23,365 nucleotides of DNA from positions 13,337 to 36,701 of the forward strand of contig JAOZPR010000005.1 of assembly GCA_029932645.1 (NCBI GenBank). The letters run 5' to 3'. The notes under the pieces were generated by a model, which was given only the letters and a program-made list of their open reading frames with translations, was not told the DNA's origin and did not search any database. This document shows, in pieces, positions 1,598-20,640 of this stretch. This DNA comes from Candidatus Aenigmatarchaeota archaeon (GTDB lineage: Archaea > Aenigmatarchaeota > Aenigmatarchaeia > GW2011-AR5 > JAGGXF01). Numbering within the stretch: the first letter of the stretch is position 1; each line of letters begins with the position of its first letter. Both the position numbers and the translations under genes were made by a program.

Positions 1598-3091
1598 TCA
1601 TTTAATTATCAGGCTTCTCGACATAATCTTGGGTTTTTTAATTTTCAGAAGCTGTAGAATGGTCGGGGCTATATTGTATAATGAATTTGCCTTGGACTTG
1701 GATAGCGTGTACCTTTCTTTCGTTATTAAAATAAACGGCACCCGGTTAAACGTATGAGCAGTGTGCGGCTTGCCGCGGTCTTTCATCTTCTCCACATTTC
1801 CGTGGTCTGCTGTGACGATTATATCATAACTATTTTCTTTCAATGCAGGTATTAATCTCTGCAGACATTTCTCAACAGCTTTCACAGCCTTCGTAGCCGC
1901 TGACAAAGAGCCTGTATGACCGACCATATCCCCGTTCGCAAAGTTCAGCATAATAACATCGTATGTCTTTTTTCGTATGATTGGCAAAAGTTTGTTTGTT
2001 ATCTTAAATGCGCTCATCTCTGGTTTTTTATCATATGTTGAAATCCTTGGTGATGGTATTATTATCTCTTTCTTCCCTCTCATTTTTTTGTATTTGCCGC
2101 CGTCAAAAAAATATGTTATATGCGCAAACTTTTCTGTCTCTGCGATTCTGAGCTGTCTCAGGCCGTGCTTTGCAAGGACATCACCAAGCGTTTCTCTTAT
2201 TTCCTGCCTGCGGAATGCCACGTTGGCTCCAACTTCATAATCAGTGAAAGAAACAAAATACAGGTTCTTGAGTTTTTTCCTTTTGAACTTGGTGAAGTTT
2301 TTTTCTATGAACGCGCGTGTCAACTGCTTCGCACGGTCAGCCCTGAAATTAAAGAAGATTATCGCATCGTTGTCCTTGACTGTGCGGTCTCCGAAAACAA
2401 GCGGCTCCAAGAACTCATCTGTTATGCCTTTTTTATATTCATAATCTATGGCACGGAAGCAAGTTTTGAAGTGCTTGCCCTTGCCGTTAACAAGCATGTC
2501 ATAGGCCTTTTTGATCCTGTCCCATCGGTTGTCGCGGTCCATGGCATAGTATCTTCCAGTTATGGACTGAATATGTCCTCCATACTTTTTTGTTTCCCTG
2601 AGAATTGCTCGGAGATATTTCTTGAACGCCTTTGGCGGGGTGTCCCTGCCGTCGCCAAACAGATGAAGAACCGGTTCTATTTTCTTGTTATGACATAATT
2701 GCAATAGAGCTATCAAATGATTTATGTGCGTGTGTATGCCTCCGTCGCTAAAAAGGCCCATGATATGCAGGCTTGAATTGTTCTTTTTAGCATGTCTGAT
2801 AGCCCTCGAGAGTTCCTTGTTTCTGAAAAATGACCTATTCTTGATTTCTTCATTTATTAAGAGCATTTCTTGTTTAACCAATCGTCCTGCTCCCATATGA
2901 AGATGACCAACCTCAGAACCGCCCAGACTATGCACAGGCAGGCCAACATAGTTCCCGTGCGCTCCTAATGTCGTGTGTGGATATTGTTTCCATAAAGACC
3001 AGAAGAATTTGGCGTGCGCAACAGGATTGGCGTGGCTACTTCTTCTCAGACCCCAGCCATCAAGAATTATAAGTGCAATGCGTCTGCTCAT
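1598..3091 (-). CDS. gpmI: 2,3-bisphosphoglycerate-independent phosphoglycerate mutase, bacterial type
   Basis: LIILDGWG, SEVGH, SDGGIH, DGRDTPP, GRYYAMDRDNRW, NFRADRA, AETEKFAH, NFANGDMVGHTG, TADHGN, HTAHT motifs. Confidence 0.97.
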   Translation of the reverse strand: MSRRIALIILDGWGLRRSSHANPVAHAKFFWSLWKQYPHTTLGAHGNYVGLPVHSLGGSEVGHLHMGAGRLVKQEMLLINEEIKNRSFFRNKELSRAIRHAKKNNSSLHIMGLFSDGGIHTHINHLIALLQLCHNKKIEPVLHLFGDGRDTPPKAFKKYLRAILRETKKYGGHIQSITGRYYAMDRDNRWDRIKKAYDMLVNGKGKHFKTCFRAIDYEYKKGITDEFLEPLVFGDRTVKDNDAIIFFNFRADRAKQLTRAFIEKNFTKFKRKKLKNLYFVSFTDYEVGANVAFRRQEIRETLGDVLAKHGLRQLRIAETEKFAHITYFFDGGKYKKMRGKKEIIIPSPRISTYDKKPEMSAFKITNKLLPIIRKKTYDVIMLNFANGDMVGHTGSLSAATKAVKAVEKCLQRLIPALKENSYDIIVTADHGNVEKMKDRGKPHTAHTFNRVPFILITKERYTLSKSKANSLYNIAPTILQLLKIKKPKIMSRSLIIK

Positions 3092-3112
3092 AACTATTCT
3101 CTTATTAACGAC

Positions 3113-3127
3113 ATATAAAAGTTTTTG
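3113..3127 (-). promoter_or_regulatory. BRE/TATA promoter, probably giving a leaderless gpmI mRNA
   Basis: Minus strand CAAAAAC-TTTTATAT ending 21 nt before the ATG; no SD present. Confidence 0.55.
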
Positions 3128-3147
3128 TTGTTGGATGGCCAGCTGCT

Positions 3148-4134
3148 CTAGTCGCCTTCTATCAGACCATTCATCCTCGCGTGCCTACCAACAGTAGAAT
3201 TTATCAGTGAAAGGTTGGACAATCTCGCAGCCTCATCGATAATTGTGCTCTTTATCTTACAATTCTCTATGACAGCATTTTCAAACAATATCGAATTTTC
3301 TATCACAGAGTCTATCACTTTGCAGTTCTCTCCGATAAAGACATTACCCTTAATTTCGCTCCCCTGGAGAACAACATTTTTCCCGATATGTTGCGCTTCT
3401 TGCATGTGCTCAAAATTGCTCTTCAGGTACGAACTATGATCCCCTATATCATACCATGCCTCATTAAAGACAAATCCATAGATGTCAACTAGCTGATAAA
3501 GCCACTCAAGAAAATATCCCGGCGCGTCCGGATTGTTTCCGCCTTCCAGATATTTCGAGAATAATGGCAGAATCTCTCTCGGAAATATGTAACAAGCTGT
3601 GCTCACAAGTGTTGATTTCGGATTCATTGGCTTTTCTTGAAACTCCTTGATTCTGTTGGTGTCATCTATCACCGCAATACCGTATATTCCTGCTATTTTT
3701 TTCTTGTCCTGCGCATTATGTAAAGCTACCACAGGATATCCTATTTTCTTGTAGAATATCAAAAACTCTTCAAGACTGAAATCGAAAATATTGTCGCCTG
3801 CTATTATCATGACATCTTCATCTACTGCTTTTTCCTGAAACACAAGATTAAGAGCACCTACCGTGCCAAGCTTATCGTGCTCTTTTGTAGAAGGCTCTAT
3901 AAACAATTCTATTTTTTTATCAGATTTTATCGTTTTTAGCCAGGACTTGAAATCCCCTTCAAAGGCCTGATTCGTAGAAACGATTACGTGGGTTATTTCG
4001 TCTATGTCTTCTAGCTTTTCAATTATATAATTTATAATCGGCTTGCCAGCAACAGTGAGCAAAGGCTTTGGTCTTTGATGTGTTATTGGCCACAATCTCT
4101 TGGCATAACCGCCTGCTAATATCACGGCTTTCAT
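3148..4134 (-). CDS. NDP-sugar synthase (sugar-1-phosphate nucleotidyltransferase) with C-terminal left-handed beta-helix
   Basis: MKAVILAGGYAKRLWP, PKPLL, GDN, FQEKP, WYDIG, then hexapeptide repeats. SD GAGGGT lies 6 nt before ATG 4134 (4140 is the alternative). Confidence 0.9.
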   Translation of the reverse strand: MKAVILAGGYAKRLWPITHQRPKPLLTVAGKPIINYIIEKLEDIDEITHVIVSTNQAFEGDFKSWLKTIKSDKKIELFIEPSTKEHDKLGTVGALNLVFQEKAVDEDVMIIAGDNIFDFSLEEFLIFYKKIGYPVVALHNAQDKKKIAGIYGIAVIDDTNRIKEFQEKPMNPKSTLVSTACYIFPREILPLFSKYLEGGNNPDAPGYFLEWLYQLVDIYGFVFNEAWYDIGDHSSYLKSNFEHMQEAQHIGKNVVLQGSEIKGNVFIGENCKVIDSVIENSILFENAVIENCKIKSTIIDEAARLSNLSLINSTVGRHARMNGLIEGD

Positions 4135-4209
4135 ATACATACCCTCTTGTTCCCAATTCTCTTATTCTCAATTATAGTCTCCTAGTTGCAGCCTTGGGCT
4201 GCTTCATTG

Positions 4210-4241
4210 TCAAGTTAGTAAATTATATCAGGTTAGTAAAT
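4210..4241. repeat. Tandem 14-bp direct repeat TCA(A/G)GTTAGTAAAT with 18-bp period
   Basis: 4210-4223 and 4228-4241, one mismatch, in the pgk/NDP-sugar synthase intergenic region. Confidence 0.6.
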
Positions 4242-4295
4242 CAGCAAGATACTAAAAAATAAAACTAAGTAGTAAAACATATCCAGCCAAACTTT

Positions 4296-5498
4296 TTAAG
4301 CCTTTGGCCTCTTGGCTGTTTCTAGGGTTTTCAAAACAGGCATATTCTCTCCAGACAGGTAACTTATAAGGGCTCCGCCAGCAAGGCTTATGAATGAGAA
4401 CTTGTCTTTTGGTATGCCAAGCTCTTCTATAGCAGAAGTGCTGTGACCGCCACCGACAAGAGAAAATGCATTAGAATCAGCAACAGCTGTGAATATTTTT
4501 CTCGTTCCCATGTCAAACCCCTTCTCAACAACCCCGGCTGTTCCGTTCAAGACTATAAACTTCGCGCTCTTTATGGTTTCTGCATACTTGTCACATGTTT
4601 TTGCTCCCATATCATAAATTTTTTCCCGAATGGGCATATCATCAATTATGATGGTCTTCTTGGTCTCGGTAATCATATCAATAGGTATTTCTATTTTATT
4701 TGCCGTGCTCTCCAACAGTTCTTTTGCCTTTGGCACAAAACCCCAGTAGTCATTATCCTTCAAGAATTTTTCAGGCTCTCCCATAACAATGCCTTTTGCC
4801 GCGATAAAAATCTGTGCAATAACACCTGTGGTGAGCACGCTTTGTAAGATTCCCTGTTCAGAAAAGTGCTCTATGATTTTCAGTGCATCTTCCGGTTTTG
4901 CCCCGCCCAAAACAAGCACGGCTTTTTCTGATTTTATCTTTTCTAATGCATCTAGCTCGTGTTGCATCTCTCTCCCCAGTACTGTTGGCAACAAAGGCAT
5001 AAAGCCAACAAGGGATGCCTGGCCACGGTGGGCAGCTGAGAATGCATCTATAACAAAAAAGTCAGCTTCTTTTGCCAAGGTTTGAACGAAATCGGTTTTT
5101 GAGTGCTCTTCTGGCGTGACCTTTTCCATCTCCTCTTTCAAACTGCGAACATTATCCAAAATGAGAATATTACCGTTCTTCAACGCTCTTATTTTTTTTA
5201 TCGCCTTTTCTCCATATATGTCATCGACAAACATTACGTCCTTGCTTGTGTGCTTAGAAAGCAGTTCAGCGTGCTGCTCGAGGTTAACAAAATCTTTGTC
5301 TCCGGGCCTACCCTGGTGAGCAAGCACAACCACCTTTGCTCCCTTGTCAGACAGCTCTTTCAATGTCTCAGCAGCTGCCCTGACTCTCGGGTTGTCCTGC
5401 ACCTTCCCATCAACAACAGGAGAATTAATGTCAGCCCTAACAAGAACGGTCTTGCCAGAAACATCTACATCATCTAGAGTACTAAACGTACTAAACAC
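4296..5498 (-). CDS. pgk: Phosphoglycerate kinase, archaeal type
   Basis: VLVRADINSP, LAHQGRPG, DAFSAAHR, LGGAK, GGGHS, ISLAGGA; GTG start with SD GAGGTGA (5509-5503). Confidence 0.97.
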   Translation of the reverse strand: MFSTFSTLDDVDVSGKTVLVRADINSPVVDGKVQDNPRVRAAAETLKELSDKGAKVVVLAHQGRPGDKDFVNLEQHAELLSKHTSKDVMFVDDIYGEKAIKKIRALKNGNILILDNVRSLKEEMEKVTPEEHSKTDFVQTLAKEADFFVIDAFSAAHRGQASLVGFMPLLPTVLGREMQHELDALEKIKSEKAVLVLGGAKPEDALKIIEHFSEQGILQSVLTTGVIAQIFIAAKGIVMGEPEKFLKDNDYWGFVPKAKELLESTANKIEIPIDMITETKKTIIIDDMPIREKIYDMGAKTCDKYAETIKSAKFIVLNGTAGVVEKGFDMGTRKIFTAVADSNAFSLVGGGHSTSAIEELGIPKDKFSFISLAGGALISYLSGENMPVLKTLETAKRPKA

Positions 5499-5601
5499 AA
5501 AATCACCTCTTTACCTCCAGCCAAACCACAGACATTATCATTCCGTCGATGCCATTCAACCATATTTATTTTATTATTTTATCTCATTGTTTTATTTTTT
5601 A

Positions 5602-6645
<1,044 letters not shown>

Positions 6646-6677: not shown

Positions 6678-7613
6678 ATGAAGCTGCTCAATCAGAAAGC
6701 CTTTTTTGATTTCTTAGGCCAATTGATTAAAAAATATGAATTTTATGCACCCATATCGCAGAAGGAGTTTGACCTGATCAAGCGACCAGAAGACATCTGT
6801 TTTGATTATATTAGAACAGATGTACCAGCCAAAAATATTTTTTTCCCTCGCGAAGAAGTGCTAATGAAATTCTCTGACGAGCGAATAAAAATCATCAAAC
6901 CACGGATGAAAAAAAAGACCATAATCTTTGGGTTGCGCTCCTGCGACCTAGCGGCAATAGAAATCATGGACAAAATATTTGAGAATGACGTCTGGTACAC
7001 GACCAGAAGGATCAACTCGATTCTTATTGGTATGGCGTGCAACAAGACAGATGAATATTGCTTTTGCGCGTCCTTTGGTATAAACCCAAGGGACGGTGAT
7101 GCTGATTTGTGGGTAACCAAGGAAGCTGATAAATTTTTTCTGCGGGAAAAAACCGACGAAGGAAAAAAACTGGTGAAAGGCCTGACGAACACACGAAAAA
7201 AGCCGAAGAAAAGAAGACTGAAGTTCAAGAAAAGGGTTCTTTTCAATAAGAAGGAACTCAAAAAACTCAAGCAACTTGATTTTGATAACTGGAAAGAATG
7301 CTTGGCCTGTGGAGCATGCACAACGGTTTGTCCAACATGCCACTGTTTTGATGTCGTGGACGTTGCTGAACAAGACCTCAGAAGTGGCGTGAGAAAACGT
7401 GTGTGGGCATCCTGCATGGAAAGGGACTTCTCAAGGGTTGCCGGCGATGCCATCCTCCGAAGCAAAAGAACAGACCGGCTGCGGCAATGGGTCCTGGATA
7501 AATTCGTTTATTTTGAGCATCATTACGGCCACATGGGCTGCGTCGGCTGCGGTCGTTGCATCAAGGCATGTCCTGTCGGAATAGATATAAGGAAGATACT
7601 GAAAAAGAAATGA
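6678..7613 (+). CDS. hydB: Group 3b [NiFe]-hydrogenase (sulfhydrogenase) beta subunit, AsrA-like 4Fe-4S protein
   Basis: GLRSCD, C-x5-CFC, CLACGACTTVCPTCHC, R.W.SC, R.RQW..DKF, CVGCGRCIKACP. Confidence 0.9.
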   Translation: MKLLNQKAFFDFLGQLIKKYEFYAPISQKEFDLIKRPEDICFDYIRTDVPAKNIFFPREEVLMKFSDERIKIIKPRMKKKTIIFGLRSCDLAAIEIMDKIFENDVWYTTRRINSILIGMACNKTDEYCFCASFGINPRDGDADLWVTKEADKFFLREKTDEGKKLVKGLTNTRKKPKKRRLKFKKRVLFNKKELKKLKQLDFDNWKECLACGACTTVCPTCHCFDVVDVAEQDLRSGVRKRVWASCMERDFSRVAGDAILRSKRTDRLRQWVLDKFVYFEHHYGHMGCVGCGRCIKACPVGIDIRKILKKK

Positions 7614-7642: not shown

Positions 7643-8407
7643 ATGAGTGGTAAAATGGAAAAACTCAAGCGCGTGAAGATAACCAAAACCAAGAAAGAGG
7701 CGCCTGATACTTTTACATTCAGGGTTCAGAACAAACTTGGTAAAATCGAGCCAGGACAATTTGTCTTCGTGTCTATCAACACGGTTGGCGAGGCGCCGAT
7801 ATCCGTGTCGTCGATACAAAAGAAATATATCGAGCTTACCGTGAAAAAACTCGGGCTGGTCACAACCGCGCTTTTCCAGAAAAAGGTTGGCGACTCGGTC
7901 TACGTACGCGGACCTTACGGAAACGCTTTTCCGAAAGCAAAACAGTACATACTTGTGGCTGGCGGTTTCGGCCTGGCACCGCTAAAAGCGCTCATAGAAG
8001 AAAGACCGAAGAACATAAAAAAACTCTTTTACGGCGCGTGCACGTACAGAGACATGATATTTAAGGATGAGCTCAAAAACTGGCAGTTCGCAGAGATGAT
8101 AGCAGAGAAAAGGACCCGCGGATGCCGTCTGGCAACCGGTCTTGTAACTGACTTAATAGACAAGGCAAAGTTAAGCCCTGTTGCTACCGTAATAATATGC
8201 GGCCCACCAATAATGCTCAAGTTTGTCGCACAGGCTCTGGAGAAAAAAGGGTTCAGGGATAGGCAAATATACGCTTCGCTTGAGAAAACCATGCACTGCG
8301 GGACTGGTATATGCGGTCACTGCAATATTGGTTCATATTACGTGTGTAAGGATGGTCCGGTTTTCAGGCTTGATAAAATAAAAGGATTTGAAGAAAAAAT
8401 TATTTAA
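7643..8407 (+). CDS. hydG: Group 3b hydrogenase gamma subunit (FAD/NAD(P)-binding, 2Fe-2S)
   Basis: PGQF, GEAPIS, RGPYGN, AGGFGLAPL, CGPPIM, CGTGICGHC...VCKDGPVF. Confidence 0.92.
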   Translation: MSGKMEKLKRVKITKTKKEAPDTFTFRVQNKLGKIEPGQFVFVSINTVGEAPISVSSIQKKYIELTVKKLGLVTTALFQKKVGDSVYVRGPYGNAFPKAKQYILVAGGFGLAPLKALIEERPKNIKKLFYGACTYRDMIFKDELKNWQFAEMIAEKRTRGCRLATGLVTDLIDKAKLSPVATVIICGPPIMLKFVAQALEKKGFRDRQIYASLEKTMHCGTGICGHCNIGSYYVCKDGPVFRLDKIKGFEEKII

Positions 8408-8438: not shown

Positions 8439-9146
8439 ATGACGAAAAGAAAAAGGCTCCGTATTGGTAATTTCTGGATGGCTGGTTGCATAGGGTGTCA
8501 GCTTGAGTTATTTAATGTACAAGACGGCACCATAGACTTTGCGGACTATCTTGATATAATAAACTTTGATTTAATTCAAGAGAAGAATATAGCAGGTCCG
8601 CTTGACATCGCCTTTGTTGAAGGTGCGATAACAAACAAAAAAGAGGAAGAAGAGCTGCGCAAGATAAGAAAAGAAAGCAAAATACTTGTTGCGCTTGGTA
8701 GCTGCGCGTGTTTTGGTTGTATACCTGGCCTCAAGAATTTTATACGCGGCCGGCCTTTTGGCGTTGCAAAACCGCTACATAAATTCGTAAAGGTTGACTA
8801 CAGATTGCGCGGATGTCCGATAAACAGGAAAGAGTTTATAGATCTTGTCAGACACCTGACAAGAGGTCTTCCGTATAGGGAAAACACATCACCGGTCTGC
8901 ACAGAGTGTCCTCTGAAGGGCAGCGACTGTTTTTTGAAAAAGGGCATCCCATGTATGGGCCCTATTACGGCAGCGGGCTGCGAAGCAATATGTATGAAAA
9001 ACGGTCAGGCCTGTGAGGGATGCAGAGGCCCGATACCAAATGCGAACATATCATCTTTATTCGAATTGTTTGAAAAATTCGGCATGAAACCCAGAGACAT
9101 AAGAAAAAAATTCAGAAAATTCGCCGGAAAAGCCTTTGGTGAATAA
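8439..9146 (+). CDS. hydD: Group 3b hydrogenase small (delta) subunit
   Basis: GCIGCQ, VEGAI, LGSCA, GCP, VCTEC, CMGPITAAGCEAIC, CEGCRG; ATG 8439 preferred over TTG 8388. Confidence 0.92.
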   Translation: MTKRKRLRIGNFWMAGCIGCQLELFNVQDGTIDFADYLDIINFDLIQEKNIAGPLDIAFVEGAITNKKEEEELRKIRKESKILVALGSCACFGCIPGLKNFIRGRPFGVAKPLHKFVKVDYRLRGCPINRKEFIDLVRHLTRGLPYRENTSPVCTECPLKGSDCFLKKGIPCMGPITAAGCEAICMKNGQACEGCRGPIPNANISSLFELFEKFGMKPRDIRKKFRKFAGKAFGE

Positions 9147-9147: not shown

Positions 9148-10389
9148 ATGAAAAAAATAACAATAGACCACATCTGCAAGATATATGGTCATGCCAACCT
9201 GACTATTAAGGTCAGTGGTAAAGATGTCCAGAAGGTTGACCTGAATATCTTCGAGTCCTCAAGATATTTTGAATCCATTGTAAAAGGCCGTTCTTATAAG
9301 GAAGCGCCTGAGCTCACAAGCAGAATATGCGGCATCTGTTCTACTGCTCATCAGATGGCCTCACTGAAAGCGATGGAGCATGCACTCGGCATAACACCAA
9401 GCCCGCAGACCAAGAAGCTGAGAGAAGTTCTACACATGGGCGGGATTATTCAAAGTCACGTGTTTCACACATATTTCTTGGCATTGCCTGATTATCTTGG
9501 ATATGACAGTGCCATTCAAATGAGCAAGAAGCATAAAGAAAAAATAAAAAACGCACTTTCACTGCGCCGGGCTGGTAATGAAATTATGAACATAATAGGC
9601 GGCCGTTCTGTTCATCCGATAAGCTGCAGGATTGGCGGGTTTGACAGACTGCCAAAAGAGGATGATATAAACAAGCTGGTTAAAAGCCTGAAAGAAAAGC
9701 GCAGGCTAGCTTTGAAAACAATTGAGCTCATGAAAGGTTTTCTGAGAAAAGAATTCGAAAGAAAAACACAGGTCATCGCACTCAGAAGCAAAGACTATTC
9801 ATTCATTGATGGTGTTATAGCAACAACAGAAAAAGATGTGGAAGAAGACTACCGGAGATATATTAAAGAATACCGTGGCGAACCAAAAAAGACCACAACA
9901 CTAGGAGGCAAGTCTTATAGGGTGGGCCCTCTTGCCAGGTTTAAAATCAACGGGTGCCCAGTAAAAAAATGTAGCATTCAGATATCGCTTGATTCGCCTT
10001 TCTCCGGAAACTTTATCAGGGCACTCGAGGTTTTACATTGTATAGATAAAAGTATAGAAATATTGGGTGCTATGAAGATAAAAAAAGAGAAGCCGCAAGA
10101 AAAGAAGCAACTGAAAAAAGTTAACGAAGGATTTGGAACTGTAGAAGCGCCAAGAGGTGTGCTTTTTCACCATTATAGATTTAACAGGCATGGACGTGTG
10201 AACAAGGCAAATATAATAACGCCCACTGCGCAAAACCTGAAAAGCGTTGAAGATGATGTCAAAGTTTTTCTCCCTCTTCTGCTCAAAAAGAAAAAGAAGA
10301 CCATTGTTCTGGAGCTGGAAAAACTGATAAGGGCATATGACCCGTGTATTTCATGCTCTACACATTTTCTTGAGGTGAAATGGATATGA
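9148..10389 (+). CDS. hydA: Group 3b [NiFe]-hydrogenase large (alpha) subunit, with atypical N-terminal motif
   Basis: L1 SRICGICSTAH, EAPRG, IITPT, L2 RAYDPCISCSTH plus a 7-aa tail; ATG 9148 preceded by SD GGTGA. Confidence 0.93.
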   Translation: MKKITIDHICKIYGHANLTIKVSGKDVQKVDLNIFESSRYFESIVKGRSYKEAPELTSRICGICSTAHQMASLKAMEHALGITPSPQTKKLREVLHMGGIIQSHVFHTYFLALPDYLGYDSAIQMSKKHKEKIKNALSLRRAGNEIMNIIGGRSVHPISCRIGGFDRLPKEDDINKLVKSLKEKRRLALKTIELMKGFLRKEFERKTQVIALRSKDYSFIDGVIATTEKDVEEDYRRYIKEYRGEPKKTTTLGGKSYRVGPLARFKINGCPVKKCSIQISLDSPFSGNFIRALEVLHCIDKSIEILGAMKIKKEKPQEKKQLKKVNEGFGTVEAPRGVLFHHYRFNRHGRVNKANIITPTAQNLKSVEDDVKVFLPLLLKKKKKTIVLELEKLIRAYDPCISCSTHFLEVKWI

Positions 10390-11165
10390 AAGATTTCTAT
10401 AAGGAAAGACCGAAGAACAGCCATAAAGGAGACTTTGGCCGATTGGCTGTGATAGCATATGAATACACTGGCGCTCCTGCGCTTGTTGCCATGGCAGCGC
10501 TGCGCTCCGGTGTAGATATTGTTGAAATCATCGCGCCAAAAGAAAAAGCGAGTACAATAGCTTCATTCTCTCCGAATCTCATTGTACGGCCTGTTGTTTT
10601 TTCTCTCGAGAACATAGAAAAAGAGCTGCAACGGGCAGACGCGTTCTGCGTCGGATCCGGATTAGGGAAAGATAAAAAAGTTCTGGGCATCGTCAAAAAG
10701 ATTATATCCAAAACGAAAAAGCCATGCGCCATAGACGCAGATGCTCTCGGGGTTGTTGATAAAAAGAATCTAAAAGGTAAACCGTTTGTATTGACACCTC
10801 ACAGGAAGGAGTTTGAAATATTCGGTAAATTGATCGAAAACATAGAACAAAACAAAAAAGCCGTGGAAAAAGCAGCAAAAAACCTCGGCGTTGTGATTTT
10901 GCTCAAAGGCCCAACAGACATAATCTCAGACGGCACCAACACAAAGCTGAATAAAACAGGCAACCCTTACATGACAAAGGGCGGAACAGGCGACGTGCTG
11001 ACAGGCATAGTCGGCTCTTTGCTTGCACAGGGATTAAAACCATTCAGGGCTGCATGCCTCGGCGCCTATATATCTGGCTTGGCAGGCGATGCTGTGTCAA
11101 AAGAAAAGGGTCCTGGGCTGCTGGCGACAGACGTCATAGAAAAGATACCTGATATAATAAAATAA
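10386..11165 (+). CDS. nnrD: NAD(P)HX dehydratase, stand-alone
   Basis: SHKGDFG, YTGA, GSGLG, IDADAL, TPH..EF, LLKG, GNP.M..GGTGDVL. ATGA overlap with the hydA stop; SD GAGGTGA at 10372-10378. Confidence 0.92.
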   Translation: MKDFYKERPKNSHKGDFGRLAVIAYEYTGAPALVAMAALRSGVDIVEIIAPKEKASTIASFSPNLIVRPVVFSLENIEKELQRADAFCVGSGLGKDKKVLGIVKKIISKTKKPCAIDADALGVVDKKNLKGKPFVLTPHRKEFEIFGKLIENIEQNKKAVEKAAKNLGVVILLKGPTDIISDGTNTKLNKTGNPYMTKGGTGDVLTGIVGSLLAQGLKPFRAACLGAYISGLAGDAVSKEKGPGLLATDVIEKIPDIIK

Positions 11166-11458: not shown

Positions 11459-12421
11459 TCAGTCACCTGTCTCATCTGTTGTAATTCCTTGTCCATCAGT
11501 GATTTCTTGTTCGCTTTCAACAGTCTCGTTTGTTATTGGTGGATTGACAACTTGGCCTGATCTTATTTTTTGAAGTCTCTCTAGCTGGCGCGCCCGGATT
11601 TTTTCTTTGACCAGTTTCCTAGCTTGGATAGCTTTCCTGCATACTGTGGCTTGTGGATTTTTTAGACAGTACTGTTCTGTTGTCTGTACCAAGAAAATCT
11701 TGCATCTTTCTTCATCTGGATGGTTCTTACAATATACTCTTAGTGCATATCTGCATCTGGCATCATCCAGATTGTCGATACAATACTCCTTGAATATGGC
11801 TTTACATCTCTGGTCATCCGGATTGTTCTTGCAGAATGTCTTTATCTTTTCCCTGCACGACGGGTCTTTAGGATTTTTCTCACAGTATCTGTTTCCTATA
11901 CCTTTCGCAACAGCAACGCATTTTGCCGGATATAACTCGCAGAAACTATGTATGTTTTCTGCCAGTTCTACTGCTCTAACTTTTCTGATGGCTCCTAAAA
12001 TATATGTGTTGTATGTCGCACCACTTACATCTATTGTTCCGACCCAGACCTCTGTGTCTCCCTTTTCTACTGATTCAGCGCTGATGCTGCCCACTTTTTC
12101 ATCGCCAGAATACAGATTGGCTTCAATAGAACCATTACCAAGTACTATGTCCTTCACCTTGTATTTGTCATCGTCCAAGAAAAGCACACCAACCATCAGC
12201 TCTGTTTCTTCGCCAAGCAGACTCACTTTGATATTACCAATACCTATCTTGACAATCTTAAAGTCCATAAGATCTGCTGGGTTTGTTGCTATACCCTTAC
12301 CGAGAACTGCCAGTTTTTTTATAACTGGCCTTGGTGCTGTTGTCTGCGCACTAAGCTGCCCCTGCGCAAAAACAGGCATCACAAAAAGCAGAACAGCGAG
12401 CACCGCAAAGATTTTTTTCAT
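11459..12421 (-). CDS. Secreted protein with beta-rich N-domain and tandem C-x8-C repeats
   Basis: Signal peptide MKKIFAVLAVLLFVMPVFA; 12 Cys in six pairs; SD GGGTGA; start at 12421 or 12424. Confidence 0.85.
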   Translation of the reverse strand: MKKIFAVLAVLLFVMPVFAQGQLSAQTTAPRPVIKKLAVLGKGIATNPADLMDFKIVKIGIGNIKVSLLGEETELMVGVLFLDDDKYKVKDIVLGNGSIEANLYSGDEKVGSISAESVEKGDTEVWVGTIDVSGATYNTYILGAIRKVRAVELAENIHSFCELYPAKCVAVAKGIGNRYCEKNPKDPSCREKIKTFCKNNPDDQRCKAIFKEYCIDNLDDARCRYALRVYCKNHPDEERCKIFLVQTTEQYCLKNPQATVCRKAIQARKLVKEKIRARQLERLQKIRSGQVVNPPITNETVESEQEITDGQGITTDETGD

Positions 12422-12489
12422 CATCTATCACCCTTGTTTTGTTATTAATTTTTTTATTAATCAGATTATATTATCTATGTTTTGGCGTA

Positions 12490-12509: not shown

Positions 12510-12881
12510 TTATCGCAAAACTTTGGCCAGAAATTTTTTGACCTCCTCAACATCCGCATCAAAAGGTATGCCTAATATTTTTAGATTTTTTATTTCTTTC
12601 ATAGTTTTTAGTAGGTTGATGACAAAACCCAGGTCCAAGTCATGGAGAGTTGAAATCCGCCTTTTTTTAATATCATCTTCTGACAACGTACAAGGCTCCT
12701 TTATGCCTTTCACGACATCTACTATGACAACGTCTTTTTCACCATGTATAACAAACGGATCCTCTGTCTTTACAAACTCCATAGAAGGAAAATCCTCTGC
12801 TAGCTTGTCAGCAATAAACCATGCGTGTGGGTCATTAGAAGAGCCGAAAACAAAAATTTTCCTTTTCGTTTTTGCGTTCAT
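12510..12881 (-). CDS. Short, divergent hydrogenase maturation protease-like protein (HyaD/HycI-like)
   Basis: IFVFG, VVIVDVV, STLHD and KILGIP recall HyaD strands and the Asp/His ligands. It lacks GN..(G)DDG. Located in the hyp operon; ATG 12881. Confidence 0.6.
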   Translation of the reverse strand: MNAKTKRKIFVFGSSNDPHAWFIADKLAEDFPSMEFVKTEDPFVIHGEKDVVIVDVVKGIKEPCTLSEDDIKKRRISTLHDLDLGFVINLLKTMKEIKNLKILGIPFDADVEEVKKFLAKVLR

Positions 12882-12883
12882 AA

Positions 12884-13795
12884 TCAAACGCCACTAACAA
12901 GCTCGCTTTTTACATGAGAAACCAGATATGCACCGACCAAAACCATTGCCGAGCCAAAGAGCTGCATTGCTGGTGCTGGCTCGCCCAAGAATGTGATACC
13001 CAGTATCAACGATACAACAGGTGCCAGAAGCAACAAAGTTGACGCTTTTGATGCGTTGATGAACTTTATGCTGTTATACCAGCAAAACACGTAACCAAAG
13101 AGGAATAGCGTGGAAACAATGATTTTGATTATCTGTTCCTGTGTCAGCATGAACAAAACGTTTGCCTTGCCAAAGTAAAACACGGCCAAGAAAAGGAATA
13201 TTGAACCAAAGAACATACGGGAAAAGGTTACGATGTAATTGGACTCTTTCTTTAGCATGACACCTCTCGCAATAATATTCTCAATAGCCCACAGGAATGT
13301 TGCAGATATGACAAGTAAATCACCAAGAGATGGATTTGCCCACAGCTCTGCTGGGTTTATTTTTGTCGAAAAAATAATAACAGTTCCCAAAAACATCAGG
13401 GCAAGCGCTCCGAGCTGTTTTCTCGTAATCTTTTCCTTCAAAAACAGAAATGCAAGTAATGTTATGTAAAGTGGTAGCGTCTTGTGGAGAAAAGCGGCAC
13501 GCCCGCCTGTGGTCAGCCCAAGACCTGTGAAAAACAGCAAGAACGCCACAGCCCCGCCTATGAGACCTATCATTAGCATGGCAAACCAGTTAATCTTTCC
13601 AGCTCTTTTTTGAAAATCTTTTCTGTGCAAGGCTATTACAAAAAATACTATGCCTATTATAAAGGCGCGGACTGCTGTGAAAACAGTTGGGTCTATAGAA
13701 GCGATGAAAACCTTGTTGACTATTATTGAGAAGCCGCTTATCAGCGCTGTTGTAAGAGCAAACAACGTTCCTTTCATCTCGTTATCCATAATCAT
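12884..13795 (-). CDS. EamA/DMT family transporter (about 10 TM)
   Basis: Two-repeat hydrophobic pattern, FLKEKIT, GDLL...A...WA, LGE; start at 13795 or 13789. Confidence 0.9.
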   Translation of the reverse strand: MIMDNEMKGTLFALTTALISGFSIIVNKVFIASIDPTVFTAVRAFIIGIVFFVIALHRKDFQKRAGKINWFAMLMIGLIGGAVAFLLFFTGLGLTTGGRAAFLHKTLPLYITLLAFLFLKEKITRKQLGALALMFLGTVIIFSTKINPAELWANPSLGDLLVISATFLWAIENIIARGVMLKKESNYIVTFSRMFFGSIFLFLAVFYFGKANVLFMLTQEQIIKIIVSTLFLFGYVFCWYNSIKFINASKASTLLLLAPVVSLILGITFLGEPAPAMQLFGSAMVLVGAYLVSHVKSELVSGV

Positions 13796-13810
13796 TACCT
13801 ATATGATAAT

Positions 13811-14368
13811 TTATCCTACAAGGCATTTAAATTTTTTCAATGCGTTGCCATCTTCATAGTAACTTATCAGCTTGTCATACTGCTTCTTTGTTATTTTTTC
13901 AACCATATAACCATAGTGCACGACAACATGGTCTCCTTGCTTTGCATCAGGCAGAAAGTCCTTTTGGTATTTTTTAATACCAATAGGCGTCCTAACCATC
14001 CCGTCATCTGTTACAACAACACCAGGCCAGACAATGCAACGCTGGACAGGTATGTCTTTGAACACCGTGTTACGCTGCTCTATGGCCTCTACGTGCTTGA
14101 ACCAGAAGTATTCGTGAAGAATCTGGACATCTATTTTTTCCTTACCACTTTTTTTCGCCAAGATTATCAGCATCCTGACGGCTATTGTAAAAATCTTTTC
14201 CAAGTCATCTCTGATTTTTTCATTTTTCATCAGCTTTGATTTGAGCTCATCAATGGTTTTTTCACTTACCTTGCCCCGCCTGATTAACACCATGCTGCAA
14301 GGTATGGCATATCTAAGAAAAAGCCTCTTGGTTTCTTCAGAATCGAACACCACAGTCGTTTTCAGCAC
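13811..14368 (-). CDS. Hydrogenase-locus protein with C-terminal HypC-like OB-fold (resembles DUF6390, from recall)
   Basis: FLRYAIPC...YFW..H...CIVWPGVV...GDHVVVHYG..VEKI; GTG start directly abutting the hypC stop. Confidence 0.65.
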   Translation of the reverse strand: MLKTTVVFDSEETKRLFLRYAIPCSMVLIRRGKVSEKTIDELKSKLMKNEKIRDDLEKIFTIAVRMLIILAKKSGKEKIDVQILHEYFWFKHVEAIEQRNTVFKDIPVQRCIVWPGVVVTDDGMVRTPIGIKKYQKDFLPDAKQGDHVVVHYGYMVEKITKKQYDKLISYYEDGNALKKFKCLVG

Positions 14369-14563
14369 CTAAGCCTCTTCAAGAATCTTCTTTGCCTGCT
14401 TCTTATCCACAATATCCATCACAAAACCACCGTAAACGAGAACATAGTCGCCCAGCTTTGGCTTGAGAAGCTCTGTGCTGGCCTTTATTTTCTGGCCTTT
14501 TACTTCTGCCAAGACTTCTTCTTTCTCAATCTTAACAACCTTGGCTGGTATTGCCAGACACAT
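14369..14563 (-). CDS. hypC: HypC/HupF hydrogenase maturation chaperone (variant)
   Basis: MCLAIPAKVV...GDYVLVYGGF; ATG 14563 with SD GAGGTG gives the canonical Cys2. Confidence 0.9.
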   Translation of the reverse strand: MCLAIPAKVVKIEKEEVLAEVKGQKIKASTELLKPKLGDYVLVYGGFVMDIVDKKQAKKILEEA

Positions 14564-14572
14564 TTTCACACC

Positions 14573-14908
14573 TCAGTCAATAACAACTTCCTTTAAAATA
14601 ATCTTGTCGCCGTCTATAATATTGTTTTCTCCCAGCTCTTTTTTGCATTCCGGACACCTGAACCTGGTGTATGCATGTGCCTTCTCAACTATCTCAGGTT
14701 CGCCCTCAAAACCGCACTCGCATTTTACAAGGCCCCGCTTTTTAATAATCTTTATATCCCATTTGACAAGTCCGCTCAAAGCATGTTCAAGTTCGTCAGC
14801 AGGCAGATGCGCTAGGTCGCCGACTTCCACTGCTATTGATTTTATTTTGCCGTTGGCGCTCTTTTTTGCTGTCTGGATTATGTCGTTAGCTATTGCAAAC
14901 TCATGCAT
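14573..14908 (-). CDS. hypA: HypA nickel metallochaperone
   Basis: MHE Ni motif, VEVGDL, Zn site CEC...CPEC, IIDG; SD GAGGTGA overlapping the nadM stop. Confidence 0.92.
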   Translation of the reverse strand: MHEFAIANDIIQTAKKSANGKIKSIAVEVGDLAHLPADELEHALSGLVKWDIKIIKKRGLVKCECGFEGEPEIVEKAHAYTRFRCPECKKELGENNIIDGDKIILKEVVID

Positions 14909-15452: not shown

Positions 15453-17072
15453 ATGGTGGAAATAGTCCCTGAAGTGAAAAAGATAGGTGAATATGTCGTT
15501 ATTTTTACCAAGGTATATGAAGGCCCACGGCTCGTGACAGACGCTGATGTGGCTGTTATCATAGAGGACGTGGAAGAAAGGATATTTCTCCCACGCACCA
15601 GCACAACTGACTTTTCCGTGTACACGAGTAAAGAAAATGTAGTAGAAAATCTTTCCGGCGTTTACACGCTTATATTTAAAAGCCTGTTCAAGAAATTCAA
15701 GGTTACGATATTCGCCAGAACCAAAGGCAAAACAATAAAGAAGGTTTTATTGTTTGAACGCGGCCAAACAAAAGAAGAAAAAGAGCCATTAGACATAATA
15801 AGAACAATGAATGTGCTGCTCGGGTTTAATGTCAATATAGACAAAATAATCTATGTTGACAAGCGGCTAGAAAAGCTTGTTGACAGAGCAACAAGAAAAA
15901 GAATTCTCCAGGATTTGATAAAACCCAGAAAAAAAATAGACTCTGTTGAGGATGTTTTTGTCGGCATCATAGACTCAATGAAATATGGCGGTCAAGAATG
16001 GGTTATAGAAAACCCTGAAGTGGTGGGATGGCTGAAAGGGCTTTACAAAGAAGGTCTGGAAAAGGAAACCAAGATAGGTGGACAAGTCGGCATAATATCG
16101 AACCTGCTTGCTGTGCTTGGCGGGTCTCCCACAATATATTCGCCTGTGCTCTCAAGAGAACAGGCTGCGCTCTTCCGGAAAAATGTTTTTTCGGTCTGCC
16201 CCGGCAGAAGGCCTGTTGCAGAATGCATCAGCACAGAAAAAAGCAAGATAAACTGGGTGTTTGAATTTGACCGGACTGATAAACTGTTTAACATCCGGTC
16301 AAAACAAGATGGACGATTTATCGCTGGATCGCAGATGGAAGAATACAGACCGGCTTGGCCTGATATTAATAATATCGACGCGGATGCGATTATTTTGTCC
16401 GGTTTCCATCTTCTCAAGAAGAAATACAAAGACGGTAGCACTGCCAAGCAAATCATAAAGAAAACCATAGAATGGGTTGACGGGGCTGCTAAAAGAAATA
16501 TACCAATACACCTCGAATTAACATGCACAGAAGACGAATCGCTCCGAGAAAGCATTACAGAGCTTTTCTACCATGTCGACAGCGTCGGCATGAACGAGTC
16601 TGAACTAAAGCAATTAGTAAAGTTAACGGACAGGAAGGCAACAGTAAAGGACTCTTTGGCCATAATAAAACATATGAAGGAAATCGCAGACAGGTTCGGA
16701 TTGAAGCGCATCCATGTGCACACGCTCGGTTATTATATTAACCTTTACAAGACTGGCGAGTGGGTCTCGCCAGAAAACATAAAGAAGGCCATGGCGTTCG
16801 CTTCGGACCTCGCCGCTGCGAAAGCCTTCGGCGACGCAATCGAGAAGGCGGAAGACCTAAGAATGTCTGACAGTGTCTCAGTATCAGACATCGGCCTGAA
16901 GGAACAGGAAAAACTAGAACAAAACATAAACATGAAAAACGGCATCACCAAAATGAACGATTACACGCTCGTTTTTCTGCCGACTAAGGTCGTGAGCCAC
17001 CCAAAGTCCACGGTTGGTCTTGGCGACATAATCTCTGGATCCATGTTTGTGATTGAGTGCGGGTATAGGTAA
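15453..17072 (+). CDS. ADP-dependent glucokinase/phosphofructokinase with ~100-aa N-terminal extra domain
   Basis: GFNVNID, GGQVGI, INWVFEF, RFI, LSGFH, HLE, SVGMNESEL, HTLGY, PT..V..PKSTVGLGDIIS. Confidence 0.93.
   Translation: MVEIVPEVKKIGEYVVIFTKVYEGPRLVTDADVAVIIEDVEERIFLPRTSTTDFSVYTSKENVVENLSGVYTLIFKSLFKKFKVTIFARTKGKTIKKVLLFERGQTKEEKEPLDIIRTMNVLLGFNVNIDKIIYVDKRLEKLVDRATRKRILQDLIKPRKKIDSVEDVFVGIIDSMKYGGQEWVIENPEVVGWLKGLYKEGLEKETKIGGQVGIISNLLAVLGGSPTIYSPVLSREQAALFRKNVFSVCPGRRPVAECISTEKSKINWVFEFDRTDKLFNIRSKQDGRFIAGSQMEEYRPAWPDINNIDADAIILSGFHLLKKKYKDGSTAKQIIKKTIEWVDGAAKRNIPIHLELTCTEDESLRESITELFYHVDSVGMNESELKQLVKLTDRKATVKDSLAIIKHMKEIADRFGLKRIHVHTLGYYINLYKTGEWVSPENIKKAMAFASDLAAAKAFGDAIEKAEDLRMSDSVSVSDIGLKEQEKLEQNINMKNGITKMNDYTLVFLPTKVVSHPKSTVGLGDIISGSMFVIECGYR
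17043..17067 (+). repeat. Left copy of 25-bp direct repeat (3' end of the kinase gene)
   Basis: ATGTTTGTGATTGAGTGCGGGTATA, 23/25 identical to 17479-17503. Confidence 0.9.
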
Positions 17073-17138
17073 GGTCTAGGACGGAATCAGGTTGTTGGAA
17101 TCATATTTTTTCGAGATATATTATTATAGGATGACGAA

Positions 17139-17423
17139 CTATTTTTTTGATTTGTATTTATCAATTAAATGTCCAACTCCTGCTCCGATTAAAATCCCTA
17201 TGATTATTTCTACGCCCCAGCCAATTGGATGAATTTGTAAATCAGCACCTTGTGCCAATCCGAATAAATGAAAAATATAAGTTGCTGTAGTAAATGGTAA
17301 AATTAGTAATTTTTCTATTATAGTCATCTCAACCCAAAAATTCTTTCCTAACCAAGAAAAGACAGGTAGACTAATTAGGCCCCAAACTGCTCCTATTGCA
17401 GCACCAATTTTCCATTTTTTCAT
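17139..17423 (-). CDS. Small membrane protein (about 3 TM) on an AT-rich islet
   Basis: MKKWKIGAAIGAVWGLI...IIGILIGAGVGHLIDK; Gly-rich helices, mostly A/T-ending codons, own promoter. Confidence 0.8.
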   Translation of the reverse strand: MKKWKIGAAIGAVWGLISLPVFSWLGKNFWVEMTIIEKLLILPFTTATYIFHLFGLAQGADLQIHPIGWGVEIIIGILIGAGVGHLIDKYKSKK

Positions 17424-17447
17424 ATTTTAAGTTAGTTGCTGTAAGTT

Positions 17448-17461
17448 TATATAAATTTTCG
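17448..17461 (-). promoter_or_regulatory. BRE/TATA promoter, leaderless transcript
   Basis: Minus strand CGAAAA-TTTATATA, 24 nt before ATG 17423. Confidence 0.7.
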
Positions 17462-17478
17462 GCCAAAATTACTTTAGT

Positions 17479-17503
17479 ATGTTTGTGGTCGAGTGCGGGT
17501 ATA
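17479..17503 (+). repeat. Right copy of 25-bp direct repeat (orphan kinase C-terminus)
   Basis: ATGTTTGTGGTCGAGTGCGGGTATA, reading MFVVECGYKII* to TAA at 17512-17514. Confidence 0.9.
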
Positions 17504-17506
17504 AAA

Positions 17507-18625
17507 TTATATAACTTCCCTGTAAACCCCAATCGTCTCGGCAGCAATATCAACCCACGTCGGCAGCTTTTTCATGGCCTCGCCGGCTTTCTTTGCGAGC
17601 TGTTTTCGCTTTGCATCGTCACAGAGCAAGTCAAGAATGGCTGCTGCCAGCGCATCCGAGCTCGTGCCGGAGACGACAACGGCGTCTCTGACGAGTTCAA
17701 GCGCGCCGAAGTTTTTCGATAGTATTACCGGCTTTTTGAATGAAAGGGCTTCTAAAGCGACTATACCAAAAGGCTCGTGTTTTGACGGGAGGACAATTAT
17801 ATCGGCAGCCTTGAGGGAAGATTTCTTCTCGTCCTCGTCAATGAAGCCTGTGAAAAGAACGTGATTCTCAATACCCAGAACCTTGGAGAATTTTTTCAGC
17901 GATTCCAACAGGTGACCTGTGCCAACAAAAACGAAATATGCAGGGCGGGCGTCGAGAACTTTTTTAGCAGCATAAAGAAGATTTTCAGGGCCCTTTTGTG
18001 CTGTCAGACGGCCGACAAAAACAATGAGCGGCTTTTTCAGCGCATACTTTTTTGTGACATCTACGCGCTCGAAAGCTCGCTCTTCGTAGGTGTTATATAT
18101 GACCTTAATCTTTTTTTCTTCCGCTGCAAAGTCAGATAGCAGGATTTTCTTCATCATATTGCTAACAGTGATGACTGCATCTGCCTGCTCTATGCCGGCA
18201 CGCTCCATTTGTGACGGATAATTGTCCGTATACTTGAGCGTGCGCTGCTTTTCAAGGCTGTGAAGAGAAAAAACAAGCGGCTTTTTCAGAAATGCCTTGA
18301 GTTCGATACCAGCTGCGGCAGTCAGCCAATCATGAGAATGGATAACATCTATTGGCTTTTTGACGTCCAGCTTTATGACACGTTTGACAACTTCTTTATT
18401 ATAATCCTTGACTGTGCCCATTTCTTCATAGATATTTTTAATTCTCTTTGTCTTGACCTGGTGTATTGTGAAGTCGCTATATCTCTCTGTGAAATCTTCT
18501 GCGCCAGGAATAAATACATGTAAATCGCATCTTTTTCCGAGCGCCGTTGACAGCTCTTTTAAATGTGTCCCGAGCCCTCCAGTAATGTTCGGGGGAAATT
18601 CCCAACCTATCATAGCAATGCGCAC
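17507..18625 (-). CDS. GT4 glycosyltransferase (glycogen-synthase-like WEFPP subgroup)
   Basis: MRIAMIGWEFPP..GGLG, HSHDW, FVGRL..QKG, EPFGIVALEA; GTG start with SD AGGTG. Confidence 0.92.
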   Translation of the reverse strand: MRIAMIGWEFPPNITGGLGTHLKELSTALGKRCDLHVFIPGAEDFTERYSDFTIHQVKTKRIKNIYEEMGTVKDYNKEVVKRVIKLDVKKPIDVIHSHDWLTAAAGIELKAFLKKPLVFSLHSLEKQRTLKYTDNYPSQMERAGIEQADAVITVSNMMKKILLSDFAAEEKKIKVIYNTYEERAFERVDVTKKYALKKPLIVFVGRLTAQKGPENLLYAAKKVLDARPAYFVFVGTGHLLESLKKFSKVLGIENHVLFTGFIDEDEKKSSLKAADIIVLPSKHEPFGIVALEALSFKKPVILSKNFGALELVRDAVVVSGTSSDALAAAILDLLCDDAKRKQLAKKAGEAMKKLPTWVDIAAETIGVYREVI

Positions 18626-18762
18626 AAAAACACCTAAATGCCCTAATTCTATTACTTACTATCCAAAAATAAAACAAAAGTAAGAGGTCATCTTTTTATA
18701 TGCATCGAAATAATAGTTAGTCAGATAATTATAAAAAAAGGATTGAGACGGGGGGGTTGAAA

Positions 18763-19875
18763 ATGGAAAAAATAACTTTTTCTTTGATTAAGGCGGATGT
18801 CGGTGGGTGGCCAGGGCATTCAAAAGTTCATCCAGACCTCATCAAGAAAGCGAATGAAGAACTGGCAAAAAAGAAAGGCAACCTACTGATAGATTACTAT
18901 GTAACAGCGTGCGGCGATGACCTGCAACTGATAATGACACACCGGAATGGCGTCGATTCAAAAGACGTTCATGGCTTGGCATGGGACATATTCAAGAAGA
19001 CTACTGAAATTGCTAAGAAACTAAAACTTTATGGCGCAGGACAAGATATGCTCAAGGATGCGTTCTCAGGAAATATAAAGGGTATGGGACCTGGTATTGC
19101 TGAACTGGAGTTTACCGAGAGAAAGGGAGAACCTGTCATAACCTTTATGATGGATAAAACAGAACCAGGGGCATTTAACCTGCCAATATACAGGATGTTT
19201 GCTGACCCGTTCAACACGATAGGTCTGGTAATAGACCCAAACTTCCATGCGGGGTTCAGGTTTGAAATATGGGATATCAAGGAACACAAAAAGGTAATCA
19301 TGAACGCGCCTGAAGAAATGTATGAAATGCTGGCTTTGCTTGGAGCAAAGTCAAGATACGTGATTAAGCGGGTTTACCCAAAGTCTGGAGAGAAATTGCC
19401 TGAAGATGAGGCAGTTGCTGCTGTAAGCACTGAGAAACTTTTTCAAATCGCTAAAAAATACATAGGAAAAGACGACCCTGTCGCTGTTGTAAGAGCACAA
19501 TCAGGATTGCCTGCACTGGGAGAGGTTCTGGAGCCGTTCGCATTTCCACATCTCGTGTCAGGCTGGATGCGGGGCTCGCACAACGGACCAATTATGCCTG
19601 TGGCACAGAAAGATGCGATGTGCACACGATTTGACGGTCCTCCAAGAGCGGTGGCCTTAGGATTTCAGTTGGCTGAGGGCAAGCTCATCGGACCTGTTGA
19701 CCTGTTTGCTGATGTCGGGTTTGACAACGCAAGAAAAAGGGCACTCGATGTGGCTGATTATATGAGAAGACATGGACCATTTGAACCGCACAGACTACCA
19801 TTAGAGGAGATGGAGTACACAACATTGCCAAAGATTATGGAAAAGCTAAAAGACAGGTTTGAGAAGGTTGAGTAG
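18763..19875 (+). CDS. fbp: Bifunctional fructose-1,6-bisphosphate aldolase/phosphatase (class V FBPase)
   Basis: KADVGG.PGH, GDD, LYGAGQD, DKTEPGAFN, YIGKDDP (Schiff-base Tyr/Lys), GWMRGSH, FDGPPR, EMEYT; ATG 18763. Confidence 0.97.
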   Translation: MEKITFSLIKADVGGWPGHSKVHPDLIKKANEELAKKKGNLLIDYYVTACGDDLQLIMTHRNGVDSKDVHGLAWDIFKKTTEIAKKLKLYGAGQDMLKDAFSGNIKGMGPGIAELEFTERKGEPVITFMMDKTEPGAFNLPIYRMFADPFNTIGLVIDPNFHAGFRFEIWDIKEHKKVIMNAPEEMYEMLALLGAKSRYVIKRVYPKSGEKLPEDEAVAAVSTEKLFQIAKKYIGKDDPVAVVRAQSGLPALGEVLEPFAFPHLVSGWMRGSHNGPIMPVAQKDAMCTRFDGPPRAVALGFQLAEGKLIGPVDLFADVGFDNARKRALDVADYMRRHGPFEPHRLPLEEMEYTTLPKIMEKLKDRFEKVE

Positions 19876-19931
19876 CAACCTTCTTTCGTTTTATTTTCAA
19901 AATATTTTTAAGATATTAAAGGGGTGATTAG

Positions 19932-20591
19932 GTGACAAAACCGATAATAATAGTAAATATGAAAACTTACTCGCAATCTGTGGGACAAAAAGCAATAGAG
20001 CTTGCGAAGATTGCGGCAAAGGTTGCTGAAAAGACAGGCGCAGAAATAATATTGTGTCCACAGCTTGCGGATTTGAAAGAGGTTTCCAAAATTATTTCTT
20101 CTTACGGCCAGCATATCGACCCGATAGAGCCGGGCGCGCACACTGGCCACGTTCTCGGGGAATCGTTGAAAGATGCCGGAGCAACTGGAGTTATTATAAA
20201 CCATTCTGAGGATGTTGTTCCTATTGATGACATAAAGAAAGGCATTGAAAGGGCAAAATCTCTGGGACTGGTGACTGTTGTCTGCGCACCGACTGCAGTC
20301 GATGCGGAAGAAATAGCAAAGCTCTCACCAGATTACATAGCAGTCGAGCCGCCAGAGCTTATCGGCGGTGACATTTCTATATCAACTGCCAAGCCCGAAC
20401 TGATAGAAGATACTGTTGAAAAGGTCCATAAAGCAAATCCTAATATCAGAGTTTTGTGCGGCGCCGGCGTCAAAAACGGCAAAGACGTTAAAAAAGCATT
20501 GGAACTCGGGGCTGAGGGCATTCTTGTGGCATCTGGCGTTGTCAAGGCAAAAGACCCAGAGGCAGCGCTGCTGGACTTGAGCAATGTGTAG
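19932..20591 (+). CDS. tpiA: Triosephosphate isomerase, archaeal short type
   Basis: N.K, GAHTG, NHSE, VEPPELIG, CGAG, LVASG; SD GGGGTGA. Confidence 0.97.
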   Translation: MTKPIIIVNMKTYSQSVGQKAIELAKIAAKVAEKTGAEIILCPQLADLKEVSKIISSYGQHIDPIEPGAHTGHVLGESLKDAGATGVIINHSEDVVPIDDIKKGIERAKSLGLVTVVCAPTAVDAEEIAKLSPDYIAVEPPELIGGDISISTAKPELIEDTVEKVHKANPNIRVLCGAGVKNGKDVKKALELGAEGILVASGVVKAKDPEAALLDLSNV

Positions 20592-20640
20592 ATAAATATA
20601 GAATACGATGTGGCCTGCACTCGTCTTCTGGATATGTCTA

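Follow-up and report, generated by a model that had tools for sequence, protein, structure and literature searches.

A natural tyrosine at the proton-relay glutamate position of a group 3b-type [NiFe]-hydrogenase large subunit from an Aenigmatarchaeota archaeon

The window analysed here, a contig stretch of 23,365 nucleotides from a Candidatus Aenigmatarchaeota archaeon, carries a complete hydrogenase operon in the order beta-gamma-delta-alpha, which adjoins gap and pgk, together with a cassette of maturation genes on the opposite strand:

4296..6618, minus strand: pgk and gap, divergent from hydB (named from translations, with no family-library scan)
6678..7613, plus strand: hydB, beta subunit (4Fe-4S dicluster)
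7643..8407, plus strand: hydG, gamma subunit (FAD and NAD(P) binding, 2Fe-2S)
8439..9146, plus strand: hydD, small (delta) subunit, its Fe-S cysteines aligning with those of the delta subunit of P. furiosus SHI
9148..10389, plus strand: hydA, group 3b-type [NiFe]-hydrogenase large subunit of 413 aa, with ATG at 9148 and a Pfam match to nickel-dependent hydrogenase
9184..9186, plus strand: codon TAT of Tyr13, at the position of the proton-relay Glu (E17 in P. furiosus SHI, E28 in E. coli Hyd-1)
10380..11165, plus strand: nnrD, NAD(P)H-hydrate dehydratase, overlapping the hydA stop
12510..12887, minus strand: hydrogenase maturation protease (HycI-like)
12884..13795, minus strand: EamA permease, in a maturation cassette without HypDEF
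13811..14368, minus strand: HypC-like/DUF6390 protein (weak matches, under both cut-offs)
14573..14908, minus strand: hypA, nickel chaperone

The nnrD gene is similarly placed at four related loci (L026, L039, L046 and L092), and nadM is found on the minus strand beyond hypA, downstream of hydA. Judged from these neighbours, the location of the operon beside gap/pgk, nnrD and nadM suggests a function in the reoxidation of glycolytic NAD(P)H. The NAD versus NADP signature of the gamma subunit is variable. The genome of the window (G000; 718,593 bases, 89% complete, same genus as G057) encodes hydA as its single NiFe large subunit, has genes for 2-oxoacid:ferredoxin oxidoreductase and gives a weak match for Fe-ADH; neither an FeFe hydrogenase nor LDH was found at this level of completeness. 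Around the hydrogenase lies an island of sugar-metabolism genes (window positions 1598-6618 and 15453-23127; named by translation only), including phosphoglycerate mutase, pgk, gap, an ADP-dependent kinase-like gene, FBP aldolase/phosphatase, tpi and glycogen genes. At positions 11459-12424 on the minus strand, a protein of 321 aa is encoded that begins with a predicted signal-like segment and contains several copies of a Cys-rich unit; it has no Pfam or NCBIfam match, is kept in L026 (73%) and is missing at the other loci with a Tyr-type large subunit.

Judged from sequence and predicted fold, the enzyme is by its architecture a group 3b hydrogenase, but neither the gate Glu nor the full Hyp set of a canonical enzyme is present. 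Group 3b alpha subunits provided the best NCBIfam and PDB matches of hydA, and the best PDB match by sequence was P. furiosus SHI (E 6e-72; PDB 9nez, 9nf0 and 9e15), although the NCBIfam score, with 257 bits versus a cut-off of 880, lies below the equivalog cut-offs even for these best-matching 3b models. The AlphaFold model (pLDDT 85, pTM 0.89) has a TM score of 0.87 to SHI alpha at about 33% identity. Both CxxC motifs are present (ligands C61, C64, C400 and C403), and the operon provides a delta subunit, a gamma subunit with FAD/NAD(P) binding and a beta subunit with Fe-S clusters, as expected for the SHI type. Also found were the canopy residue R336, H68, A334-P335 and P359-T360, which we take to form the CN/CO pocket, E42 and H406 as presumed Mg ligands, a cleavable C-terminal extension of 7 aa past H406, and a protease. 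An assignment to the metal-less, Ehr-like enzymes of group 4 membrane complexes does not fit, as all four metal-binding Cys are present in 16 of 16 Tyr proteins and the partners are soluble 3b subunits.

In the L0 motif, where a canonical [NiFe]-hydrogenase has its gate Glu, hydA encodes Tyr13. The codons around the site read TGC (9175-77, Cys10), AAG (9178-80, Lys11), ATA, TAT (9184-86, Tyr13), GGT and CAT, and the N-terminal alignment, which is free of gaps, places Tyr13 at Glu17 of P. furiosus SHI alpha (ITIDHIARVEG). Thus, the exchange of Glu for Tyr at the gate site, proposed in an earlier note on this DNA, was borne out by codon and alignment alike. The same note had considered a sequencing error unlikely, and contigs from four studies concur: the codon was inspected in six contigs (rather than raw reads) from 4 runs of 4 studies of vent and marine-sediment metagenomes, of which one, X5, is possibly the source of the window itself. 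The codon lies within five of the six, one of which comes from a relative about 90% alike; these show 0 differences there, and none has Glu. The sixth belongs to another organism and ends before the codon. Tyr was also present in 17 of 17 members of the window's clusters that include the N-terminus (5 of 7 in cluster 1, the remaining 2 being fragments without the N-terminal part, and 12 of 12 in cluster 2). P0122 and P0125, 230-aa proteins of the window's cluster, have an N-terminus without the motif and are probably fragments or frameshifts.

A Lys at the motif Arg position and the Cys preceding it had been counted as part of the anomaly. Both residues are there, but neither belongs to it, because Lys occupies the Arg position in 145 of 147 Glu-type proteins and is the norm of the DPANN family, and Cys10 is local to the genus, being found only in the window's two clusters and in 0 of 118 other homologues, which have Thr, Ala or Ser instead.

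Among these 118 other homologues (43–49% identity), the gate site is Glu in 107, Tyr in 10 and Ala in 1. A larger set of 182 aligned homologues contained 165 with Glu, 16 with Tyr (39–84% identical) and 1 with Ala; it had been enlarged by a second search with a Tyr-weighted profile and therefore overstates the frequency of Tyr. A less biased count started from the 77 of 343 Aenigmatarchaeota species genomes that have the large subunit; with 3 low-completeness genomes added (80), 77 were readable at the site, and 73 of these had Glu, 3 Tyr and 1 Gly. As 16 of 182 homologues and 3 of 77 readable species carry Tyr, the residue is rare, as had been assumed, but not private to the window. Residues other than Glu and Tyr were limited to one Ala (1/182) and one Gly (1/77 species). 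Neither Asp nor Gln was seen in the 182 homologues and 77 readable species, and no other acidic residue aligned at the site. That substitutions other than Tyr are so rare argues against a site released from constraint. A DNA pattern search of JGI metagenomes yielded 9 further Tyr loci, and one Tyr protein was labelled Micrarchaeota by its source; a region-focused search for further Tyr forms returned 5 proteins, with 0 new ones carrying Tyr. In the main texts of the mostly open-access literature searched, no natural change of this Glu to Tyr was reported.

The hydA gene is under strong purifying selection. Its dN/dS against the 83%-identical relative L026 was 0.049 (about 0.05; Nei-Gojobori, at a dS of about 2, which is near saturation), compared with 0.083 for GAPDH and 0.068 for PGK, and its dN of 0.10 compares with 0.135 and 0.145 for the beta/gamma subunits. 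Invariant in 16 of 16 Tyr proteins were C61, C64, C400, C403, H68, D115, E294, D398, E42 and H406 as well as A334-P335-R336 and P359-T360. His104 was kept in 13 of 16 and was Gln in 3 of 16, and the Asp of the alternative proton path is Ser or Asn throughout the family. Low dN/dS together with intact metal ligands, Arg336, His68 and CN/CO pocket indicates that the gene is not decaying. In a clade built with the site masked, 8 of 8 proteins (49–82% identity, 114 of 413 columns invariant) had Tyr, and both Tyr codons, TAT and TAC, are used. Close homologues thus share the residue, and neither a private change nor relaxed selection was found.

Three further positions of hydA co-vary with the gate residue:

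9928..9930, plus strand: Pro261, present in 15 of 16 Tyr forms versus 7 of 159 Glu forms
10006..10008, plus strand: Gly287, a position with Asn in 0 of 16 Tyr forms versus 147 of 159 Glu forms
10018..10029, plus strand: Arg291-x-x-Glu294, with Arg291 in 16 of 16 Tyr forms versus 6 of 159 Glu forms

Accordingly, a residue other than Asn stands at position 287 in 16 of 16 Tyr forms versus 12 of 159 Glu forms, and at position 291 the Glu forms mostly have Gln. Arg291 is located three residues ahead of Glu294, which, by motif rather than by direct alignment, is inferred to be equivalent to Glu436 of T. roseopersicina Hyn, where an alternative proton path Arg487-Asp103-His104-Glu436 has been proposed (PMC3325256; this and the papers below are cited from their accessible parts). 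The link between Tyr and Arg291 is one-way, as the Arg291 background also occurs with Glu, namely in the 6 of 159 proteins and in 6 further 3b-type Aenigmatarchaeota genomes; Arg is present at this position in Mvh-type enzymes too. The Arg291 background may therefore be permissive for Tyr or merely a lineage marker instead of a compensation. Independent pairs of Tyr and Arg291 on supported branches number only 2, too few to test a coupling. A compensating acid in the small subunit was ruled out, since the residue following its first Cys does not track Tyr: it is Ile here, Glu in other Tyr loci and Lys, Phe, Ser or Ala in Glu loci.

As to its history, one to five origins of Tyr are possible from the trees and the gene order. 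With the four diagnostic columns masked, a tree of 51 of the 182 rows split the Tyr sequences into five groups, with poor resolution of the backbone; Tyr was monophyletic in 0 of 200 bootstrap trees, and the best trees require 5 changes. Monophyly of Tyr was rejected under LG+G4 (p-AU 0.032) and not rejected under a mixture model with 30 rows (p-AU 0.099). For the two Aenigmatarchaeota-type Tyr groups, a four-subunit tree of 14 rows gave a p-AU of 0.022, the groups being split only by a single long, compositionally odd Glu row. Against their separation counts the common gene order pgk, gap, hydBGDA, nnrD, protease, EamA and HypC-like in the window, L039 and L046/L092. Moreover, gap and pgk adjoin 5 of 5 examined Tyr loci, which are kin, versus 1 of 14 Glu-type 3b loci (leaving out L090 of the Gly type and L096 of the Mvh type).

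The second departure from a canonical enzyme concerns maturation. No match to HypD or HypB was obtained in G000 (89% complete), and the matches to HypE (73 bits versus a cut-off of 252) and HypF (41 bits versus 466; searched in G000 only) were weak and partial. What this genome without HypB, HypD, HypE and HypF has is the minus-strand cassette at 12510-14908, in the order protease, EamA, HypC-like/DUF6390 and hypA. HypD and HypE were found in 3 of the 77 Aenigmatarchaeota genomes that encode the large subunit and were missing from 74. According to PMC12134894, the cofactor requires all six Hyp proteins. Given the absence of HypD and HypB and of a genuine HypE or HypF, assembly of a normal Fe(CN)2CO site cannot be taken for granted. 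Missing HypD and HypE were ruled out as the cause of Tyr, as Glu forms lack them too, and since relatives without Hyp retain Glu, the two oddities are separate.

The favoured reading is that the enzyme works and evolves H2 while bypassing the gate; this ranks above a Tyr relay, another substrate or cofactor, and a dead subunit. That this Tyr-gated, tetrameric group 3b-type enzyme still evolves H2 from glycolytic NAD(P)H, with its protons rerouted, is put at about an even chance. A Tyr side chain is longer than that of Glu, and its phenol has a pKa near 10. Being long and a poor substitute for a carboxylate, Tyr would probably plug or cap the Glu channel, perhaps with a hydrogen bond to Cys400, and protons would then reach the metal site by another route, either the His68 path or the Arg336-His104-Glu294 path. 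The latter would have Arg291, the constant companion of Tyr, as its neighbour, and some loss of rate would be tolerated. In the literature, the Glu goes by the name of universal proton gate (PMC8020662), and some enzymes are crippled once it is lost (PMC8020662, PMC3325256); SHI E17Q retains 20–30% activity (PMC8163435), and Hyn E14Q showed about 50% activity in vitro and lost H2 evolution in vivo (PMC3325256). A His pathway is described via the His of CxxCxxxH, equivalent to H68 (PMC11228991). The His104 route is weakened by Gln at this position in 3 of 16 Tyr proteins and by Ser or Asn in place of the path Asp. From the exchange, altered chemistry or loss of H2 catalysis had been deduced in the earlier note: altered chemistry is still plausible, whereas loss of catalysis is disfavoured by the conserved catalytic and cofactor-pocket residues, the strong selection and the residual activity of SHI E17Q.

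Clearly less probable, at a little over one chance in five, is that Tyr13 itself serves as a proton donor or as a proton-coupled electron-transfer partner of Cys400, tuning bias or oxidant tolerance. The high pKa of a phenol and the longer side chain speak against such a relay, as does the variable partner position in the small subunit. The AlphaFold model, whose overall fold is like SHI alpha, does not place Tyr13 or supply a geometry, because pLDDT is below 50 over residues 1–14. On the other hand, it is Tyr, not Phe or an inert residue, that is kept in all 16 cases, the step from GAR to TAY takes two changes with an Asp intermediate not seen, and the proton-donor His38 of complex I at the same position (PMC11228991) is a precedent for a non-carboxylate donor.

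An unlikely alternative, of slightly lower standing, is that the protein is no longer a hydrogenase and that, with a different metal site made without HypD, HypE and HypF and shaped by Tyr, it passes NAD(P)H electrons to, for example, polysulfide. Sulfur is reduced by group 3b enzymes (PMC7304191), and the scarcity of HypD and HypE among the genomes with the subunit, set beside the Hyp requirement cited above, would fit. However, 73 of 77 readable species, mostly without Hyp, retain Glu, so absence of Hyp does not free the gate site. The large subunit has also retained its CN/CO pocket and cleavable tail, and HypA and the protease are still encoded. Equally doubtful is a distinct mechanistic class of Tyr-gated, HypDEF-independent DPANN enzymes, which would have arisen by several origins of Tyr on the Arg291 background and use direct proton-coupled electron transfer at a non-canonical metal site, possibly on a substrate other than H2. 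A catalytically dead large subunit, kept as scaffold or sensor for a working beta-gamma diaphorase half, could account for the lost gate residue and canonical maturases, but is improbable, as the other catalytic residues are invariant (His104 in 13 of 16) and hydA, by its dN, is under no less constraint than the beta and gamma subunits. That the Tyr codon stems from a sequencing error, or from a private change in a gene undergoing decay, is practically excluded by independent contigs agreeing at the codon, diverged homologues with Tyr and low dN/dS.

The Tyr13 enzyme can be set beside several known systems. P. furiosus SHI likewise has four subunits in the order beta-gamma-delta-alpha, the same Cys ligands, the canopy Arg and Ser at the canopy Asp position; it differs in Glu17 for Tyr13 and in Ala, Asn and Gln for Pro261, Gly287 and Arg291. 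The nearest homologues of hydA (43–49% identity) are the group 3b-related hydrogenases of DPANN/CPR, known from the hyd1 type (PMC7304191), Aenigmarchaeota 3b (PMC8407114) and Woesearchaeota 3b (PMC8421398). They likewise have Lys in L0 and a HypC-like gene and protease nearby, with HypD and HypE mostly absent, but about nine in ten retain Glu. Neither the L0 Glu nor a Tyr variant is taken up in the accessible parts of these three papers, and those of PMC11216029 and PMC8091004 contribute nothing further here. The engineered variants SHI E17Q, Hyd-1 E28Q and Hyn E14Q lost the same carboxylate; in contrast to Glu-to-Gln, the Tyr13 variant arose in nature, is maintained by selection, introduces an aromatic residue and comes with second-shell changes. 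In complex I (Nqo4/NuoD His38) and Ehr, the loop position or metal site is altered together with the chemistry (PMC11228991, PMC7304191). These are group 4-related, and Ehr lacks the metal-binding Cys, whereas hydA has all four and group 3b partners. As a caution, DPANN 3b enzymes have been annotated as H2 producers on cysteine motifs alone. The proton route of [NiFe]-hydrogenases is debated between a Glu gate, an Arg-His-Glu path and a His path, and nearly all the evidence comes from mutants made in the laboratory. A family that lacks Glu by nature and under selection, with Glu relatives on the Arg291 background as controls, makes this question testable.

Further variants were seen among the relatives. 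A 3b-type large subunit (L090:9266-10519; G347, G346) has Gly at the gate and Pro inside its C-terminal CxxC, and occurs in one of the few genomes with HypD and HypE. With Glu kept, the L0 motif departs from Gly-His to Ala-Arg in L051 (G119), from His to Ser in L014, L015, L021 and L123 (G063-G065, G278) and from Gly to Ser in L131 (G326). Two-subunit versions, with no beta or gamma gene matched nearby, were found at L086-L088, L093, L094 and L097; their small subunit is truncated to about 160 aa, and the second Cys of its motif is replaced in most, for example by Asp. Finally, P0015, P0016 and P0021 are Glu-type large subunits of about 550 aa, with an extra domain (PF02663) in P0016.
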